Assembly (NCBI GenBank): GCA_963745075.1
Contig: CAVUWV010000015.1
Span: forward strand, 1 to 64,000
DNA: 64,000 bases
Direction of reading: 5' to 3'
Source of the DNA: Candidatus Hydrogenedentota bacterium
GTDB taxonomy: Bacteria > Hydrogenedentota > Hydrogenedentia > Hydrogenedentales > SLHB01
In this document: positions 33,980-47,213 of the stretch, in pieces
Numbering within the stretch: position 1 is the stretch's first letter
Layout of the letters: each line of letters opens with the position of its first letter
The notes under the pieces: model-generated
Told to the model about the DNA's origin: nothing
Seen by the model: the letters and a program-made list of their open reading frames with translations, nothing else
The model's database searches: none
Translations under genes and position numbers: made by a program

Positions 33980-36944
33980 ATGATTCGATCCTGGCGAATC
34001 GCCGTGCTCGCGGCGGCATTCATTCTTGTCCATTCCTTTGCAGGGGCCGAGTCCGATCCGGCGGAACAGTTGGCGGATTCTCTGGTGCAAGGTGTGCGTG
34101 GCATTGAACGTGACGCGAAATCCACTGCCGTGCTGGACAAATTCCTCGATTCGCTCAATTCCCCGCCCGAATCCCGCCGCCGACGCGGAAGCCCTCTTCA
34201 AGTCCCAAGTGCATCCACTTCTCGCCGAACACTGTTTCGCGTGCCACGGGCCTGACAAGCAGAAGGGCGGCCTACGTCTGGATACGCCCGTTGCGCTGCG
34301 GGACGGTGGCGCGGACGGCCCGGTGATTGTGCCCGGAAACCCCGACGCGAGCCGGCTCGTCCAGGCGATCCAGTACAGCGATGAGAGTCTGCAAATGCCC
34401 CCAAAGGGAAAGCTCCCCGACGATGCCATCGCCACATTGACGGAGTGGGTGGCAAAAGGCGCGCCGTGGCCCAACGCGGATGATGACCTCGCCAATCTGG
34501 AGAAACTGAAGAGGGATGAAATCGCGCATTCGGACAAGTATTGGGCTTTCCGTCCAGCTTCTCGTCCCGCGGTTCCGGAACTCGACGATGCGGAGTGGGG
34601 GACGAACCCCATCGACGCCTTTGTCCTGGACGCACTCCGGAAGAGGAATCTTGATCCGTCGCCGACGGCTGACCGTCGTACGCTGATTCGCCGGGTGTAC
34701 CTGGATGTGCTGGGGCTGCCGCCGACCCCCGAAGAGGTCGATTCGTTTGTTGCCAGATCCTGATCCCGATGCGTACGCACAACTCGTCGACCGGGTACTC
34801 GCCTCGCCCCACTACGGTGAGCGATGGGCGCGTCATTGGCTCGATGTCGCGCGATTCGCCGAGACCAACGGGTTCGAAACCAACACACCGCGGCCCAACG
34901 CGTGGCCCTATCGGGACTATGTCATTCAAGCTTTTAACGAGGACAAACCCTACACAGATTTCGTGCGCGAACAGATCGCCGGTGACACGTTGGGCGTGAT
35001 TCCCGCCACCGGTTTTCTGGTGGGTGGCCCCATGGACCAAGTGAAGAGTCCCGAACGTCGTCCTGACCAAGAACCAACGCGATGGCGAGTTGCATGATAT
35101 GGTTTCCACCATCGGCGGCGTGTTCCTCGGGCTGACGGTGGGATGCGCCAAGTGCCACGACCACAAATTCGATCCGATTACTCAGCGCGATTATTACCGC
35201 ATGCGGGCGTTGGTCGCGGGCGTGCAACACGGGGAACAGGAAATCCCGCCTCCGGACTACCCGGAGAAGCTGAAGGAAGCTGAAGCGGCGCGCGCGGATC
35301 TGCGCGGTATCGAAACGCGGCTGCTGCGTTTTGTGCCCAAGGCCCGGCTTGATGGTGATGCGGACAATCCTTCGCGGCCCCCGGTGTCTCCGGGAATGAA
35401 TCTGGATCGATTTGATCCGGTAGAGGCCCGATTTGTCCGGTTCACCATCCTCGAAACCAATTCGAGCGAGCCATGCATCGACGAATTGGAAATCTTTTCC
35501 ACCGGTCCGGACTCCGTGAACGTTGCCCTGGCAGACCTCGGTGCGAAAGCAACCGCCTCCAGCGAGTATCCCAACAATGCCAAACACAAGATCGTCCATC
35601 TGAACGACGGAGAATATGGGAACGACCACAGTTGGATCCCGGCGTCGGGTCCTGTAGCGTGGGCGGAGATTGAGTTCCCGGAGGCCACCACCATCGATCG
35701 TATCATGTGGGCACGCGACCGCGACGGGGCTTTCTCGGACCGGCTCGCCACAGAAGTATCGGATCGAAGTTGCGGTCGAACCCGGCCAATGGAATCTGGT
35801 CGCCACTTCGGACGATCGGCAAGGGTACAAAGCGGATGCGGACGAGGTGCCCCTGTACTCGTCCGAAGGCATGGGCGAGGCCGCGACCCGCGAATTGAAT
35901 GGATTGCTCCACAAAGAACGCAAGCTCAAGAAATCAATTAAGCGATTGACCGAGGTCCCAAAAGTATATGCGGGTCGTTTCGAACAACCCGGTCCGACCC
36001 ATATTCTCCGTCGCGGCGACCCAATGCAGGAAGGGGACGAGGTCGTTCCCGGAACACCCAAGTACGTGGGCATTCCCTGCGACCTCCCCGCAGACCTGCC
36101 CGAGCAGGAACGGCGCCGGGCTTTGGCGGATTGGATCGCCAGCCCCGAGAATCCGCTCACCGCGCGGGTCATCGTGAATCGAATCTGGCAGCATCACTTC
36201 GGTCATGGCATCGTCGATACGCCCAGCGATTTCGGCGCCATGGGGGCCCGGCCGACTCATCCCGAATTGCTGGATTGGCTCGCGTCGGAACTGGTCGCCC
36301 GGGGATGGCGATTGAAAGCCATACATCGCCTGATTCTGTTGTCGAGCACCTACCGGCAGTCCGCGACGCCCCGTCCGGAAGCCATGACGGCGGACGCCGG
36401 CACCCGGTTCCTCTGGCGGTTTCCGCCACGCCGCCTTGAAGCGGAACCGATTCGGGATTCCATTTTGTTCGTGAGCGGTAAGCTCGACCTCACCATGGGC
36501 GGGCCAGGGTACGACGCCTTCAAACCAGACAACAGTTACGTGCACATTTACGTGCCGAAAGAAGAATTCGAAGCGACCGATTTCCGGCGCATGATCTACC
36601 AGTGGAAACCGCGTGTCGAGCAGGACATCACCTTCGGGGTCTTCGACTGTCCCGACGCGACCCAGTCAACACCGAAACGGGTGAGCAGCACGTCGCCCTT
36701 GCAAGCCCTGAGTTTGCTCAACAGCCCGTTTATGAACCGGCAAGCCACCGTGTTTGCACGACGGCTGGAAGACGAATCCGGCGCCGATTGCCACGAACAG
36801 GTTCGACGGGCATTTCTGCTGGCTTTCGGCCGACCGCCGGACGACGAGGAATCGCGCGTGTCGGAAGCGTTTGTGCGCGACGAAGGCCTTGAGTTGTTCT
36901 GTCGCGCCTTGTACAACGCAAACGAATTCATTTATCTGAATTAG
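33980..36944 (+). CDS. Planctomycete cytochrome c / DUF1549 / DUF1553 protein with an F5/8-type-C-like insert, four +1 frameshifts
   Basis: [82 protein letters not shown]. Confidence 0.88.
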
Positions 36945-36973
36945 TTTCTAGTATGGACCTTGGAGATTGTTGC

Positions 36974-38451
36974 ATGGAGCCTTTGTCGCACCACGGCCGG
37001 TACCTGTTAGACCGCCGTTCGTTTCTACAGTACGCGGGCACAGGGCTCAGCAGCATCGCGTTGGCCGCACTGCTGGGCGGTCAGAAGGCACTGGCGGAAG
37101 GGGAGGGGCCCATCCGGCCGCAAATCGACTCCGCTGCACCCATGGCGCCGCGTCCACCCCATTACCAGCCGCGCGCGACGAAAGTGCTGATGATCTTCTG
37201 TTCCGGCGCGGTGAGTCACGTCGATAGTTGGGACTACAAGCCAGAACTCATCAAGCGCGACGGCCAGCCCATGCCGGGTGGCGATGCCCTCATCACGTTC
37301 CAGGGCGAGCAGGGTAATCTGACAAAAGCCGCTGTGGAATTTCAAGCAACGGGGCGAAAGCGGGAAGTACGCGTCCGATCTGTTGCCCCACATGGCCGAA
37401 CTGGTCGACGACTTTTGCTTCATTCATTCCATGACCGCTCGCAGCAACACCCACGGTCCGGCGGAGAGCCAGATGAACACCGGCTTCACCCTCGACGGAT
37501 TTCCCAGCATGGGATCCTGGGTGTCCTATGCGCTCGGCGCCGAGGCCGACGACTTGCCCGCGTACGTGGCCATTCCCGATCCGCGCGGCGTGCCCCAGAT
37601 GGGTCCCAACAGTTGGTCGGCGGGATTTCTACCGGCCGTGTTCCAAGGCGTGCCGTTCGGCGCCGACAAACCCATTCCCCATCTCGCCACGCCGGATTCC
37701 ATCAGCAAAAATGCCGAGCATGCAACGCAGGACTTCTTAAAGTTCCTGAACGAGAAGCATCTTGAAAAATTTCCAGGCGACACGGAACTCAGCGCGCGGA
37801 TCTCCAGTTACGAATTGGCAGCGCGAATGCAGCTGCGCGCCGCCGAAGTGAGCGATTTCTCCCGGGAATCCGCCGCGACACGGCAAATGTACTGCGTTGA
37901 CGACGCGAACGACGTGAAAGCGGGTTTCGGCCGGAATTGCCTGTTAGCGCGCCGCCTCCTGGAGCGTGGGGTGCGTTTCGTGCAGCTTTTCAATGGCGCA
38001 TACGCCATGGGCGAAGGTGTCGGCAACTGGGATGGGCACAAGGTGCTTCGCGAGCAGTACAGCGTCCATGCGCCGATTCTTGACGAACCCTGCGCGGCCC
38101 TGCTGAAGGATTTGAAAGCCCGGGGACTTCTGGATGACACGCTGGTCGTGTGGGCCACCGAGTTTGGTCGCATGCCCACGTTCCAGAAGGGCGCCAGCGG
38201 CCGCGACCACAATCCCAAAGGTTTTACCGCGTTCCTGGCCGGGGCCGGCGTCAAGCGCGCGCTTCAGCTACGGCGCCACCGATGAATTCGGCTACAAGGC
38301 CGTGGAGAACGTGACGACCATCTACGACCTGCACGCCACGATCCTGCATCTCCTCGGCCTGAACCACAAGCGGCTAACCTTCTACCACAACGGCATCGAG
38401 CGGCGCCTCACCGACGTGCACGGGGAAATTATCCATCCGATTTTGGCATGA
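36974..38451 (+). CDS. DUF1501 family protein with Tat-like signal, +1 frameshifts at ~37325 and ~38262
   Basis: [79 protein letters not shown]. Confidence 0.9.
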
Positions 38452-42260: not shown

Positions 42261-42421
42261 AACATCCCCCTTGATCCCCCTTCAAAGGGGGAAACCGCGC
42301 AGGCTTCGCCGCGCGCTCGCCCACAAAGACGAGCCAATACTTTCTACCGGCGTTAATCCTCCGAAGGTATAGCTGGAGACGTTTCGAATTCCCCCTTTGA
42401 AGGGGGATCAAGGGGGATGTT
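42261..42421. repeat. 161-bp element with perfect 33-bp terminal inverted repeats (MITE/REP-like)
   Basis: aacatcccccttgatcccccttcaaagggggaa (42261-42293) and its exact reverse complement (42389-42421). Confidence 0.85.
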
Positions 42422-42435
42422 CTTCGCGTCAGCGG

Positions 42436-43245
42436 TCAAGAGAAGAACGGATCGTATTCCGCTTCGGCTTCGGGGTTGGGGGTGTTGTCCTCGATCCACT
42501 GTTGGAACGCTTCCGGCTCCAGGACATTTAGGAACCCCCGCATCCGGTAGTGACCAAGCCCGCAGAGTTGGGCGCACGCGATTTCGAAGGTCCGGGTTTC
42601 GTCGCCTTTCAGTTTGCGGTACTGAGCGGTCGACATGGTGGGAACGAACGAGATGTGCGTGCGCACGCCGGGGATGACGTCCTGTTTTACGCGCATCTCC
42701 GGGATGTTGAAACTGTGAATCACATCCTGGGAACTAAGCCACAAAACCACAGGCTTGTTCACCGATACATAGAGCTGGTTCCGCGTGACGATGTCGTCTT
42801 TGCCGTAGGGGTCCTCGCGATCCAGTCCGACGGGGTTGAGTTCATCGTCCACGAACGATGCATCCGTGCGCCCGAACACGCCGTCCTTGCCGGCGTAGTG
42901 AAAATTCCACGCGAACTGTTGCGCCACCACCCGCACTTGTAAAGCCTCATCCTCGTTCGGGACAGCCACAACATAGCGGGACCAGAACGGTATCGACAGG
43001 CCGACGAGCAGGAGTACTTCAATGACGATTACACCCGCTTCAATATAGTAGGTGGCGCGGCTCCGGGCGCCGTCGTGGTTTGCCCGGGGATTTCGGGATT
43101 TCCGGAAGCGGAAGAGCACATACACACCGTAGACAAACCAGCCCATAAAAAGGAGCGCCATGAACACGTGCGTGTAGACCAGGAGGCGGTCGATTTGTGC
43201 ACCGTGCTCCGAGCCCAACACCGGAAGTCCCCACCACTGGCTCAC
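42436..43245 (-). CDS. coxB: Cytochrome c oxidase subunit II (CuA)
   Basis: AQQFAWNFHY, SQDVIHSF, KQDVIPG, CAQLCGLGHYRM; GTG start inferred. Confidence 0.92.
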   Translation of the reverse strand: MSQWWGLPVLGSEHGAQIDRLLVYTHVFMALLFMGWFVYGVYVLFRFRKSRNPRANHDGARSRATYYIEAGVIVIEVLLLVGLSIPFWSRYVVAVPNEDEALQVRVVAQQFAWNFHYAGKDGVFGRTDASFVDDELNPVGLDREDPYGKDDIVTRNQLYVSVNKPVVLWLSSQDVIHSFNIPEMRVKQDVIPGVRTHISFVPTMSTAQYRKLKGDETRTFEIACAQLCGLGHYRMRGFLNVLEPEAFQQWIEDNTPNPEAEAEYDPFFS

Positions 43246-43502
43246 GACAGGTCGGCCTCCATCGGGATGCGCGGTTCCTCGGGCGCTTCGTCCAATGTTG
43301 CCGTCGCACCCTTCATGCGCAGCAAAATCCCAACGGTGACCACACTCATGAATCCGACCACCATGCCGGTTACCGCAAGCAGCGTCAGGATTCCCATGTT
43401 CATCCCCTGGGTCTGCGGCGAGTCGGCGTCGCCGAAGCACGTGGCGCACCCCCACGCAACCGGGGCGAGTAGACAAGCCGTCGTTACGATCAGGCTCTTC
43501 AT
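43242..43502 (-). CDS. Small membrane protein with a CxxC motif in the cox operon
   Basis: Signal-like N-terminus, CATCFG, one TM; overlaps both neighbours by 4 nt. Confidence 0.7.
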   Translation of the reverse strand: MKSLIVTTACLLAPVAWGCATCFGDADSPQTQGMNMGILTLLAVTGMVVGFMSVVTVGILLRMKGATATLDEAPEEPRIPMEADLS

Positions 43503-43702
43503 AGCCAGTGCGTGTCCTTCGTTATTGCAACAAACCGATAGCCGTGGAGGACAAGCGCGCAAAAGACGATCGCGCAACCGATGCCTGCGAATAGATAGCG
43601 TGCGCCAGATTCATCCGCATGTTCCAAGGTCCAAACCCCTGTGGCGGCGCAGAACAGGGCAGCCAACACAACAAACACGGTATGTGCCAACTTCAACGAC
43701 AC
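43499..43702 (-). CDS. Small two-TM protein in the cox operon
   Basis: MSLKLAHTVFV..., two hydrophobic helices, coupled to the next gene. Confidence 0.6.
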   Translation of the reverse strand: MSLKLAHTVFVVLAALFCAATGVWTLEHADESGARYLFAGIGCAIVFCALVLHGYRFVAITKDTHWL

Positions 43703-43723: not shown

Positions 43724-44308
43724 TCAAACAAAATAGATTAGAACGAACGTCACAACGGACATGAGACCCAGAAACTGCCAGTACAGCCCCAAACATTCCA
43801 GCCGATTGACATACTGCCGACGGTCCCGCAGCACGAGACCTCTGCCCAGTGTCGCCAGGTAAAACGCAACCAGAACGCCTGCAACGATGTGAAACCGAAG
43901 GAGGCCAGTCAACAGGTAATACATGCCGTAGAAGGTGCTTGTCGCCGCAACGACGCCGCCTGAACCCACGATGCGGTGTTCTATGGCGATCAACAGGATA
44001 GATCCGGCACCAAGCGCTATGGATACCCACAACCAAATCACTTCCCGGTTCTTGGAAGCGCGAACCCAGGCGTTCGCGCCCGCGATTGCCAGCAGGATCA
44101 CGCAGAGCACGTTCGCCGCACCAATTCCGGTAGGCAAGACCGCGCTGCCCTTTGGCCATTCCGTCGCCGCCGTTCGGAGAAAGACGTAGCTCGAGAACAG
44201 CGCGCCGAAAAACATGGTTTCCGCCGCCAGGAAAAGCCACGTACCGACTTTGGCGTTATAGAGCCCCGTATCCGGGCGCGGTTCGCTGGTGTAAGGCACC
44301 GCGCTCAT
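43724..44308 (-). CDS. coxC: Cytochrome c oxidase subunit III (short form)
   Basis: GTWLFLAAETMFFGALFSSY, FYGMYYLLTG, GLYWQF. Confidence 0.85.
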   Translation of the reverse strand: MSAVPYTSEPRPDTGLYNAKVGTWLFLAAETMFFGALFSSYVFLRTAATEWPKGSAVLPTGIGAANVLCVILLAIAGANAWVRASKNREVIWLWVSIALGAGSILLIAIEHRIVGSGGVVAATSTFYGMYYLLTGLLRFHIVAGVLVAFYLATLGRGLVLRDRRQYVNRLECLGLYWQFLGLMSVVTFVLIYFV

Positions 44309-46053
44309 GCTTCCTCCGGCTGCCACTGCGGCGTGAAGTCTTCGGCCTGCCCGGGAACGCTGTATTCGTTGGGTCCGCGATAGGCCTTCACCGGCTGGTC
44401 GAAATTTCCTGCGAATCGCGGCGGTGAGGACGTCTGCCATTCCAGCGTCGTGGCGTCCCACGGGTTCGCCGCAATCTTCGGGCCCCACTTGAGGCTGTAG
44501 AAGAAATTGATGATGAACGGAATCTGTACAACCGCCAGCGCAAAGGCCGAATGGGTAGCGACCTTGTTGAGAAAGAAGATCTCCTGTCCGAAACCGTACG
44601 TGGCGCCGCCATCGTACAACCGCCGCGACACGCCACCCAAGCCCTGCAGCAACATCGGAATGAAGATCGCGTTCATGAACAGCAGCGACGGCCAGAAATG
44701 TACCTTGCCCAAGAAATCGTTCATCTTTCGGCCGGTCACTTTCGGGAACCAGTAGTAGATGCCGGCGAAGATGGCGAACAATGTGCCGGGCGCGACGATG
44801 TAATGAAAGTGGCCGATAACGTAGTACGTATCGTGCAGTTCGATGTTGGTCGCCGACAAGGCCAAGGGCAATCCCGTGAGCCCGCCGATGCCGAACATGG
44901 GTAAAAACGCGAGGGCAAAAAGCATCGGCACCGTAAACCGGATCGACCCGCCCCAAAGGGATACCAGCAACGACGTTGCAAGAATGATGGACGGGATCGA
45001 GATGATCAGCGTCGTAGCTTGGAAGAAGGTGCTGATGGTCGTGCCCATGCCGGTAAGGAACATGTGGTGCGCCCACACGATCATGGACATAAAACCCATG
45101 AACACCGCCGCGCCAACCATGCCCTTATACCCCCAAAGCGGTTTGCGCGTATTGTTCGCGATGATCTCCGCGATGATGCCGAAGGCAGGAAGGATCAGGA
45201 CATACACTTCCGGATGAGCGAGAAACCAGAACAGATGCTGCCACAGCAGCGCGCTTCCGCCTCCGCTCACTTCCAGGGGCTTGCCGGAAACGATGAGCCC
45301 CGACGGCAGGAAGAAGCTCGTGCCTTTCAGCCGATCCATGAGCTGCAAGGCCGCCGCCGCCGCAAGCGGGGGAAAGGCCAAGAGCAGGAGATACGCCGTC
45401 ACCAACTGTCCCCACACAAAGAACGGCAAGCGCATCAGCGTGAGACCTTCCGTGCGAAGCTGGACGACCGTTGTGATGATATTAATCGCCAGGAACAGCG
45501 AGGACAGATACACGAGCGCGATCCCGATAAGCCAGGCAGTCTGACCGCTCAACTCGATCGTCGAGAGGGGCGGATAGCCGGTCCAGCCGGAATTGGCGGG
45601 ACCCTGCGCCGTGAAGAAACTCGCGCCGATAACGATGATTCCGCCGAGGTAGCAGAGATACCCCGCGCGGCTCAGCCGGGGAAAGGCCAGGTTCGGCGCG
45701 CCGACCATGAGCGGGACCAGGTAGGTGCCGAACCCGCCGACCAGCAACGGTACGACGGCGAGAAACACCATGAAGGTGCCGTGCATGGCGCCGAGTTGGT
45801 TGTAGAAATTCGGCAGCATTACGCCGCCGGGCATGCGCAGGTCGTTGTCGCCAAAGAATCGGCCGAGAAGCGGCACGGGTTGTCCCGGATACGCCAACTG
45901 CCACCGCATGAGGAGCACGAAACAGAAGGCGACAAACAGCATCACCAGCGCCGTAAGGCCGTACTGAATGCCGATCACCTTATGGTCGCAGGAAATGACG
46001 CGCCGGAACCAGCCGGCCTGCGGCCGTTCCGAATCGATACTGCTGTTCGTCAT
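44305..46053 (-). CDS. coxA: Heme-copper oxidase subunit I, atypical A-family
   Basis: DHKVIG, MHG, GWTGYPPL, FWFLAHPEVY, WAHHMF, LHDTYYVIGHFHY, SRR. Confidence 0.95.
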   Translation of the reverse strand: MTNSSIDSERPQAGWFRRVISCDHKVIGIQYGLTALVMLFVAFCFVLLMRWQLAYPGQPVPLLGRFFGDNDLRMPGGVMLPNFYNQLGAMHGTFMVFLAVVPLLVGGFGTYLVPLMVGAPNLAFPRLSRAGYLCYLGGIIVIGASFFTAQGPANSGWTGYPPLSTIELSGQTAWLIGIALVYLSSLFLAINIITTVVQLRTEGLTLMRLPFFVWGQLVTAYLLLLAFPPLAAAAALQLMDRLKGTSFFLPSGLIVSGKPLEVSGGGSALLWQHLFWFLAHPEVYVLILPAFGIIAEIIANNTRKPLWGYKGMVGAAVFMGFMSMIVWAHHMFLTGMGTTISTFFQATTLIISIPSIILATSLLVSLWGGSIRFTVPMLFALAFLPMFGIGGLTGLPLALSATNIELHDTYYVIGHFHYIVAPGTLFAIFAGIYYWFPKVTGRKMNDFLGKVHFWPSLLFMNAIFIPMLLQGLGGVSRRLYDGGATYGFGQEIFFLNKVATHSAFALAVVQIPFIINFFYSLKWGPKIAANPWDATTLEWQTSSPPRFAGNFDQPVKAYRGPNEYSVPGQAEDFTPQWQPEEA

Positions 46054-46162: not shown

Positions 46163-46204
46163 AAAGAAAAGGCGGAGGACGACAGAACGGCCATCGTCCT
46201 CCGC
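46163..46204 (-). terminator. Rho-independent terminator
   Basis: gcggaggacga / tcgtcctccgc stem followed on the minus strand by cttttcttt. Confidence 0.7.
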
Positions 46205-46943: not shown

Positions 46944-47213
46944 GACCGATTGATACTCCTTACACCTGGAACAACTACTTCGGGTACGCCTTGCAGTGCG
47001 CATAGCGGAAAACCCTAGCAAATGTGGCCACGCCGGTCAAACGGACGGAGCGGAATGATTGGTGCAAGCGTTGGACATCCAAAACGGGGATGGTATTCAA
47101 CTGCCCTCTTGGCATCTCAACATAACAGTGGTACGATGAAGCCGGTGAGCGTCGCTGAATTCCGTTTCGTGGGCTATTCCGCACCTGCGGTGCCTTGGAA
47201 GGAGTTTTTCATC

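Follow-up and report, generated by a model that had tools for sequence, protein, structure and literature searches.

Judged on its sequence, the CoxI protein encoded in the 64,000-nucleotide stretch of DNA analysed here (the window) is of A-family descent, departs from the A1 type in both its D- and its K-channel, and is neither a B-type oxidase nor a NOR. It likely reduces O2 to water, and its residues predict that it pumps less than the approximately 1 H+ per electron of A1-type enzymes. The original prediction had presented the altered residues as a crippling set in one odd protein. The residues stand, but we found them to be arranged in two nested conserved layers that resemble rescue and uncoupling combinations. 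We give somewhat less than an even chance to the view that nature repeatedly built a non-pumping A-family oxidase: a Glu of subunit II and a Ser/Thr ladder would have replaced the channel lysine, and a joint loss of Asp132, of the Asn gate and of the cap formed by subunits III and IV would have followed on more than one occasion, recreating the decoupling suppressors of the laboratory.

The coxI gene is one uninterrupted open frame encoding 582 aa, and its product matches PF00115 above the cut-off. Residues of CoxI were mapped by HMMER alignment to the P. denitrificans protein 1AR1 and, for numbering, by a MAFFT alignment that included E. coli CyoB; R. sphaeroides numbers are used unless stated otherwise, and the equivalences between bovine, Rhodobacter and Paracoccus residues are tabulated in the part of PMC12901375 available to us. 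In both alignments T110, N121, S128, S355 and L358 of CoxI correspond to Rhodobacter N121, D132, N139, T359 and K362, which confirms the substitutions N121T, D132N, N139S, T359S and K362L that had been proposed by manual alignment, with E286 kept as E282; the positions of Asp132 and Lys362 hold N and L, not Asp and Lys. The motif GHPEVY reads AHPEVY, as had been noted, and this amounts to G283A (A279 of CoxI). The metal-site motifs and the cross-link Tyr also proved to be present, since the alignment recovers all six His ligands (H91, H280, H329, H330, H415 and H417), Tyr288 (Y284) and the Arg pair. Not mentioned previously were S142G, G204L, S299A, D407N and the loss of H549; G204 and H549, which we take to be D-channel sites by their roles, were placed through T204 and F549 of E. 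coli. The earlier statement that these are true codons holds: a frameshift or assembly error was ruled out as their source because the gene is one open frame and the nearest relatives, which come from other assemblies, carry the same residues. All seven of these (P0002-P0008, 83-92% identical) agree with it in the segment of helix VIII, and the D-channel segment, which six of them cover, is likewise the same.

An AlphaFold model of CoxI (mean pLDDT 84) has A-type aa3 oxidases as its best fold matches (TM 0.83-0.85), and the best PDB match is likewise of the A type. The six His and the position of the cross-link Tyr in helix VI (Tyr-I) are traits of heme-copper O2 reductases. When compared with the A1 criteria in Table 2 of Sousa 2011 (PMC3084760, the available part), CoxI keeps four of the eight D-channel residues (N199, Y35, S193 and E278) and has D124N, N113T, N131S and S134G at the others, while in the K-channel one of four is identical (Y280) and K354L, T351S and S291A are found. 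The XGHPEVY motif reads AHPEVY, and the TIGR02891 score is 550.9 bits against a cut-off of 670.75. As in the A1 type, the accompanying subunit II has the ligands for CuA (H177, C224, C228, H232 and M235). The alternative K path of B-type enzymes is matched at one of three positions, with L358, S355 and A295 at K354, T351 and S291. A NOR is contradicted by the presence of the Tyr and by HPEVY, compared to HLWVE in the two qNORs of the host genome.

The operon has the order cupredoxin gene, coxI, short coxIII, two small membrane ORFs and coxII (Table 1). Upstream of the cupredoxin gene, an element TTGA[A/C]N-17-TANNNT was recognised by eye in 9/9 D-less loci examined, which hints at housekeeping transcription; the TTGACC-17-TAGGGT version of this operon was absent from the output of an automatic promoter scan. 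FNR-type boxes gave 16 matches compared to 18.2 expected, none of them upstream of the operon. Terminator-like sites numbered 11, compared to 7.3 +/- 2.8 in shuffles, so that the hairpin before coxI is a weak signal. The cupredoxin-like protein, whose copper motif is conserved across loci, is likely the electron donor to the oxidase; it carries a C-terminal carboxypeptidase-regulatory-like domain (PF13620, below cut-off), and its gene has a dN/dS of 0.10-0.12. For coxIII this ratio is 0.09-0.19. In this operon coxIII and coxII have no CoxIV gene between them. The 86-aa ORF, for which the longer frame that holds it gave no Pfam or NCBIfam match, possibly encodes a copper-assembly factor. In CoxII, Q226 is found within the CuA site where Glu is usual, and the protein has the entry Glu69, a new buried Glu76 (43018-43020) and His26.

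Table 1. Positions in the window of the oxidase operon and of the altered or retained residues of CoxI.
Feature	Position	Strand	Remarks
Predicted housekeeping-type promoter	47012..47040	-	TTGACC, 17 nt, TAGGGT; TG one base before the second hexamer
Secreted cupredoxin-like protein, 240 aa	46221..46943	-	His ... C-x2-H-x2-M type-1 copper motif
14-pair hairpin and T-rich tail	46172..46204	-	Between the cupredoxin gene and coxI; possible attenuator
coxI	44305..46053	-	582 aa; subunit I of a heme-copper oxidase of the A family, without the lysine and the D entrance
Altered D-channel entrance and gate	45661..45726	-	T110 (N121), N121 (D132), S128 (N139), R129 (N140), G131 (S142)
CoxI T110 codon	45724-45726	-	Rhodobacter N121
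CoxI N121 codon	45691-45693	-	Rhodobacter D132
CoxI S128 codon	45670-45672	-	Rhodobacter N139
CoxI helix IV	45481..45510	-	Y182 (G198), L188 (G204, possible plug), N191 (N207, kept)
AHPEVY	45202..45219	-	CuB His, Glu286 and cross-link Tyr kept; G283A
Rebuilt helix VIII	44971..45000	-	S352 (A356), S355 (T359), I356 (G360), L358 (K362), T360 (F364), S361 (S365)
CoxI S355 codon	44989-44991	-	Rhodobacter T359
CoxI L358 codon	44980-44982	-	Rhodobacter K362
N403 at D407	44845..44847	-	Exit-side water cluster
Short CoxIII, 194 aa	43724..44308	-	Eroded motifs: TGLHxLH to TGLLRFH; YWHFVD to YWQFLG
67-aa two-helix membrane ORF	43499..43702	-	SLKxFH type
86-aa membrane ORF with CxxC	43242..43502	-	CATCFG; conserved in the clade
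CoxII, 269 aa	42436..43245	-	CuA ligands intact; no cytochrome c domain

The first of the two layers is the loss of the K-channel lysine. K362 is replaced in 120/120 of the nearest proteins (I in 84, L in 24, V in 8 and M in 4), and 114/120 have Ala at G283. Lys362 is missing from 221 of the 249 rows and present in 28 of a pooled CoxI set, which comprises matches of at least 330 aa, skips six re-fetched loci and contains some genes twice. One of these 221 (L082) belongs to another branch. In a tree of 56 hand-picked rows, from which 15 trait columns were removed, the rows without the lysine group as a single clade (SH-aLRT 100) with members from Verrucomicrobiota, Planctomycetota, Acidobacteriota, Marinimicrobia, Ignavibacteriota and Hydrogenedentota; it branches among Lys-bearing A sequences in this tree of A-type sequences without a B, C or NOR outgroup. 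The lysine-less rows have Ser at A356 (S352 in CoxI) in 220/221 cases, compared to 0/28 for the Lys rows, T or S at F364 in 209/221, and I, V, M or L at G360; many new invariant polar residues, such as Q216, N301, Q345 and Q470, also occur in the clade. In CoxII, the Pro seven residues past the entry Glu has become Glu/Asp76 in 21/21 aligned D-less and 51/52 D-intact lysine-less rows and in 0/24 Lys rows, counts from which 26 loci were dropped as duplicates, short versions or non-oxidases and which lack 21 loci without coxII within the available stretch. The entry Glu69 itself is kept in just 9/21 aligned D-less rows. A complex prediction for CoxI with the N-terminal 100 residues of CoxII scored 0.68, compared to 0.00 for the best control, against a mark that 116/157 solved and 2/215 mismatched pairs reached; its runs share at least 94% of contacts, with a partner pLDDT of 66-68. 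Because so familiar a pair can score well through memorisation by the predictor, we used this prediction just for the facing residues, which are 69, 72, 73, 76 and 77 of CoxII and 349, 352, 353, 356, 357, 360 and 363 of CoxI; Glu76 occurs in no pair among the 25 contacts listed. From conservation and this predicted interface we infer that a Glu/Ser/Thr path substitutes for the K-channel lysine. The host operon has the traits of the clade, with a hydrophobic residue at 362, Ser356, the buried Glu of subunit II and the order coxI-coxIII-small ORFs-coxII.

The second layer, the loss of the D-channel entrance, lies within the first and occurs mostly in Hydrogenedentota. Among the 221 lysine-less rows, 149 have Asp or Glu at 132, 69 have neither and 3 have a gap. 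As had been asked of homologues, the substitutions do co-occur: N139 is lost in 62/69 lysine-less rows without Asp132 (54 of them to S or T) and kept in 146/148 with Asp132, although related and partly duplicated rows make these counts look more independent than they are. Asn139 remains in 7/69 D-less rows, and in one main-lineage member (L129) Asp132 is present and N139 absent. The main D-less lineage, which includes the host CoxI, has 63 rows (SH-aLRT 100). It shows T, S, G or N at 121, N, G or S at 132, S139 in 49/63 and G142 in 62/63; G204 is L or I in 63/63 (G in 137/143 D-intact rows), D407 is N in 61/63 (D in 140/143), H549 is mostly absent, and the helix V Glu/Gln that 142/143 D-intact lysine-less rows have is lost. 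The claim that the enzyme lacks the D-channel is borne out for the entrance residues. It may nevertheless overstate the case because Glu286 (63/63), Asn207 (61/63), Tyr33 (61/63) and Ser200 (62/63) are conserved in this lineage, as is the cross-link Tyr Y284 (63/63).

The entrance was probably lost at least twice, and about two origins are all that the trees support. A second D-less lineage (L119, L123, L128 and L132) is nested within a family of otherwise D-intact enzymes, where it shows N121T/I, D132G, N139S/T, S142G, S200A and no H549; it keeps G204, the helix V Glu and E286 (4/4). Forcing it together with the main lineage was rejected (p-AU 0.0215, for groups named after the tree had been seen). 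Region-wise identities gave no clear sign of recombination as its source. Over positions 100-140 it is marginally more similar to the main lineage, which convergence also predicts. A third origin, for L113 and L120, was not supported, because placing both with the main lineage improved the tree by 25 log units. The double loss of Lys362 and Asp132 may recur elsewhere, since 13 of 150 cluster representatives (50% identity) lack both by pairwise alignment and several of these are approximately 40% identical, although some sequences may be faulty.

Other subunits change along with the D-channel. A CoxIV-like ORF between coxIII and coxII, recognised by eye as hydrophobic and with an MH motif, occurs in 37/43 operons with Asp132 and in 0/16 without; two of the six Asp132 operons that lack it belong to D-less branches. 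The first His of the CoxIII motif TGLHxLH is present in 3/23 D-less compared to 41/42 aligned D-intact rows, and the His of YWHFVD in 2/23 compared to 38/43. Near coxI of the second lineage, and likewise of the sister sequences L122, L124 and L125, which are D-intact, no coxIII was found, although some of these contigs are short, and coxII lies directly 3' of coxI where both were mapped. Since the D-intact sisters are also without a nearby coxIII, the gene content suggests that in the second lineage subunit III was lost before the D entrance; borrowing from another operon is possible.

The nearest named homologues of CoxI are from Candidatus Hydrogenedentota. Besides the D-less operon, the host genome (90% complete) has an A1-type oxidase with Lys362 and Asp132 on one contig (C12) and, on another (C13), an A2 oxidase within a gene run of ACIII-like sizes, recognised by the sizes and order of its ORFs and not by a family scan. 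It also holds ctaA, ctaB, a bd oxidase and the two qNORs. Compared to three genomes of the same genus (G104, G106 and G107), coxI has dN/dS values of 0.073, 0.054 and 0.051, and coxII of 0.05-0.10; those of the A2 coxI (0.035-0.049) are near, all of these ratios being rough because dS is near saturation. The coxI gene is under purifying selection, and a pseudogene is rejected by these values. A decaying or non-catalytic paralog, which the usual co-occurrence of a canonical A2 oxidase and the eroded CoxIII motifs might suggest, is hardly credible given the same ratios, the invariance of all ligands and the conserved promoter-like element. The A2 oxidase with D and K residues was found in 20/23 genomes of the main D-less lineage (in one as a partial gene) and not in the other three, G065, G071 and G080 (94, 60 and 63% complete), and four genomes (G111, G047, G048 and G044) contain D-less and D-intact lysine-less copies together.

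The working of the enzyme to which we give a near-even chance is that of an accessory, cupredoxin-fed O2 reductase which takes its chemical protons through an ungated remnant of the D-channel and a rebuilt K-type path, and which pumps few or no protons. Electrons would pass from the cupredoxin to CuA, heme a and the heme a3-CuB-Tyr centre, the ligands being present in the sequences and the donor and heme types presumed. For the oxidative half, protons would enter from the cytoplasm through a D-channel without carboxylate and Asn gate (T121/N132/S139/G142), by analogy to R. sphaeroides mutants; the remnant retains N207, Y33, S200, S201 and E286, and the subunit III/IV cap is eroded. For the reductive half, conservation and the predicted interface point to a K-type path between subunits I and II, along Glu69(II), Thr360, Glu76(II), Ser355/Ser352 and Tyr284. 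Charge separation would be kept and pumping given up, and the enzyme would presumably run beside the ACIII-linked canonical A2 oxidase in conditions where the removal of O2 or the flux of electrons outweighs yield.

The D407N mutant of R. sphaeroides pumps normally, and for this reason D407N is the weaker as evidence. We take D407, partly with the help of the table of residue equivalences mentioned above, to be the Asp bonded to the propionate A of heme a3. Mutating that Asp can decouple (PMC4321873, available passages). In the available part of PMC12901375, N139S/T/D (bovine N98S/T/D) keep O2 reduction and lose pumping, and K362M blocks the reduction of heme a3, with an added N139T/D restoring the PR-to-F step. 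Proton uptake after the loss of Asp132 is restored in D132N/N139T, where turnover is still impaired, and by removal of subunit III (passages of PMC3840923 and PMC8361435, respectively). Because the natural pattern matches these laboratory rescues and the upper D-channel is conserved, we favour the ungated, non-pumping remnant. Counting against it are the impaired turnover of D132N/N139T, the rows that keep N139, the frequent absence of Glu69(II), the loss of the helix V Glu/Gln, and the L/I204 common to all 63 main-lineage rows, by which the channel may be sealed.

If Leu204 and Tyr198 did seal the D-channel, the enzyme would follow a B-family-like plan with a single rebuilt K-type route, possibly half-stoichiometry pumping and a higher O2 affinity. 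Such a plan, which we consider unlikely though well above the remaining alternatives, fits L/I204, the eroded or lost subunit III and lost subunit IV, S361 regained in 52/63 rows, A/G at 359 and Glu76(II) in all aligned D-less rows, and an A-to-B transition through D-channel loss is described in the available part of PMC11214002. However, E286, N207, Y33 and S200 are conserved, where ba3 has I235, I162 and F24 (PMC12901375, same passages), one of the three B-type K residues (Thr, Ser, Tyr) is present, and the second lineage keeps G204. The ungated remnant and the B-like plan both give a low-yield O2 reductase.

A non-electrogenic O2 scavenger that draws protons from the periplasmic side, as in cNOR, would account for the exit side altered by D407N and the loss of the helix V Glu, and D132N mutants are thought to turn over via back-leak through the exit path (PMC4321873, same passages); the conserved N-side polar ladder with Glu76(II) and the bd oxidase already in the genome make it improbable. 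That NO or H2O2 is the true substrate instead of O2 has a slight probability. K362M mutants keep peroxidase activity, and the host, with its two qNORs, probably meets NO. Nevertheless, the cross-link Tyr, which marks O2 reductases in the available passages of PMC11214002 and PMC3084760, is invariant, the NOR-type Glu ligand motif is absent, no nitrogen-cycle gene recurs among the neighbour loci listed, and nirK and nosZ were not found in the 90%-complete genome. Equally slight is the probability that full pumping of H+ or Na+ persists by a route unrecognisable from sequence: Q216, N301, Q345 and Q470 are candidates for it, but they also occur in D-intact members, so that none is a specific substitute for the D-channel, and no new conserved carboxylate except E167, on the P side, is found in the 45 alignment columns with the best separation between D-less and D-intact rows. 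The original prediction of other routes or no pumping holds. We found no support for the coupling to another ion that it also raised, nor for NO reduction, and both keep a slight probability.

From iron oxidisers and from Thioclava, A-type enzymes that are lysine-less and D-intact have already been published (bioRxiv 10.1101/2020.03.01.968255 and PMC8239418, in the parts available). For the D-less layer, no description was found in a full-text search mainly of open-access papers, and the supplementary figures of Degli Esposti may list such sequences; likewise no measured activity of any member of the lysine-less clade was found in the literature. This is important because point mutants remain the basis on which the gating of pumped versus chemical protons, and the need of A-type enzymes for two channels, are debated. 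Natural pairs for testing are provided by an enzyme under selection that lacks both K362 and D132, by its kin that keep Asp132 (sometimes in the same genome) and by the second lineage, which made the same changes. If our reading is true, the clade is a natural series (K-less pumping, K-less decoupled and two-subunit decoupled) that would help to locate the gate of the proton pump and to model the A-to-B transition, and counting every 'A-family' gene as an efficient, low-affinity pump can mislead.

Among known systems, the A1-type aa3 oxidases (P. denitrificans 1AR1/7ATE and R. sphaeroides 1M56/2GSM) share with the present enzyme the fold, the six His, Tyr288, Glu286, the Arg pair, a CuA subunit II and a subunit III gene. 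They differ at K362, S299, D132, N121, N139, S142, G204, D407 and H549, all changed here, and in the present operon there are an adjoining cupredoxin, no cytochrome c domain, the new Glu in helix 2 of subunit II and an eroded CoxIII. The oxidase of T. thermophilus (ba3, B-family) resembles it in having no D-channel entrance and PS[LIV] in helix VIII, the residue after S309 presumably fitting this pattern, and the second lineage resembles ba3 further in having no neighbouring coxIII. Its sequence match is far weaker, however (E about 1e-5 to 1e-7, compared to 1e-110 for the A type), and the host CoxI keeps Glu286 and has neither the Thr nor the Tyr that B-type enzymes have in the K path. The lysine-less oxidases of acidophilic iron oxidisers and Thioclava (Degli Esposti; the two sources named above), here compared by description in the parts available, also have a hydrophobic residue at K354, but they are of the A2 type, keep the D-channel and have lost the entry Glu of subunit II, whereas the host CoxI has an A1-type PEVY. 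Closest in their combination of changes are the decoupled and rescue mutants of R. sphaeroides (N139S/T, D132N/N139T, subunit III-depleted D132 and K362M/N139T), which in the available passages share the loss of Asp132, a small hydroxyl at 139 and a weakened subunit III. In contrast to these mutants, the enzyme described here is natural, selected and repeated, and its changes are joined to the loss of the lysine, to N121T and S142G and, in the main lineage, to G204L, a combination for which those passages contain no joint test.

The helix V residue at position 231 of CoxI is Glu or Gln in 142 of the 143 lysine-less rows that retain Asp132, and it is Ala or Val across the main D-less lineage. 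This change from Glu/Gln to Ala/Val covaries with I182Y.

Genes resembling ctaA, ctaB, a SCO protein gene and DUF420, labels that were assigned by eye from the sequence, follow the operon at several D-less loci (L143, L146, L148 and L129). The ctaA and ctaB genes of the window's genome are located away from the D-less operon, on contig C23. In one D-less member (loci L095/L146 of genome G059; protein P0034) CoxI and CoxIII are joined in a single open frame of about 800 aa. We also observed that the titles of loci L033, L053 and L070 (Bifidobacteriaceae, Enterobacteriaceae and Chitinophaga, respectively) poorly match the oxidases on those contigs, and these taxon labels may be wrong.

Further features of the window and its genome are listed in the Table. 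The overlapping frames of two of the window's genes possibly reflect frameshifts or assembly errors. The A1-type oxidase carries Val at the position of N121 and Thr at that of H411, and no full-length match with a similar score was found for it among the other 134 genomes searched.

Features of the window and of its genome (G000).
Location	Feature
Window 34026-36944	DUF1549/DUF1553-like gene for planctomycete-type cytochrome, in three overlapping frames
Window 36953-38451	DUF1501-like gene, likewise in three overlapping frames
Window 42266-42416	CCCCTTTGAAGGGGG hairpin repeat, two copies in inverted orientation, between coxII and glutamine synthetase-like gene
Window 45361-45363	Codon of CoxI residue 231
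G000:C12:119862-126220	A1-type oxidase operon: coxII, coxI, coxIII and genes resembling ctaG, Rieske protein, cytochrome b
G000:C26:18453-22808	625-aa membrane protein, weak COX1-family match, immediately upstream of one qNOR

Lys362 and Asp132 are also absent from a Thermoanaerobaculia oxidase (L057; 50% identical), which is placed on a long branch of the tree and whose coxI is directly followed by coxII. Seven cluster representatives (P0122, P0124, P0125, P0142, P0161, P0245 and P0266) lack both residues while keeping the Tyr, and these are possibly more independent losses.

The second D-less lineage comprises the lysine-less second-copy oxidases L119 (G045), L123 (G048), L128 (G047) and L132 (G044), all four with Glu at position 345; its sisters, likewise lysine-less second copies, are L122, L124 and L125. 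Among these seven oxidases coxI is directly followed by coxII where both were mapped, and for none of the seven was coxIII found near coxI. All seven look like two-subunit, B-like A-family enzymes.
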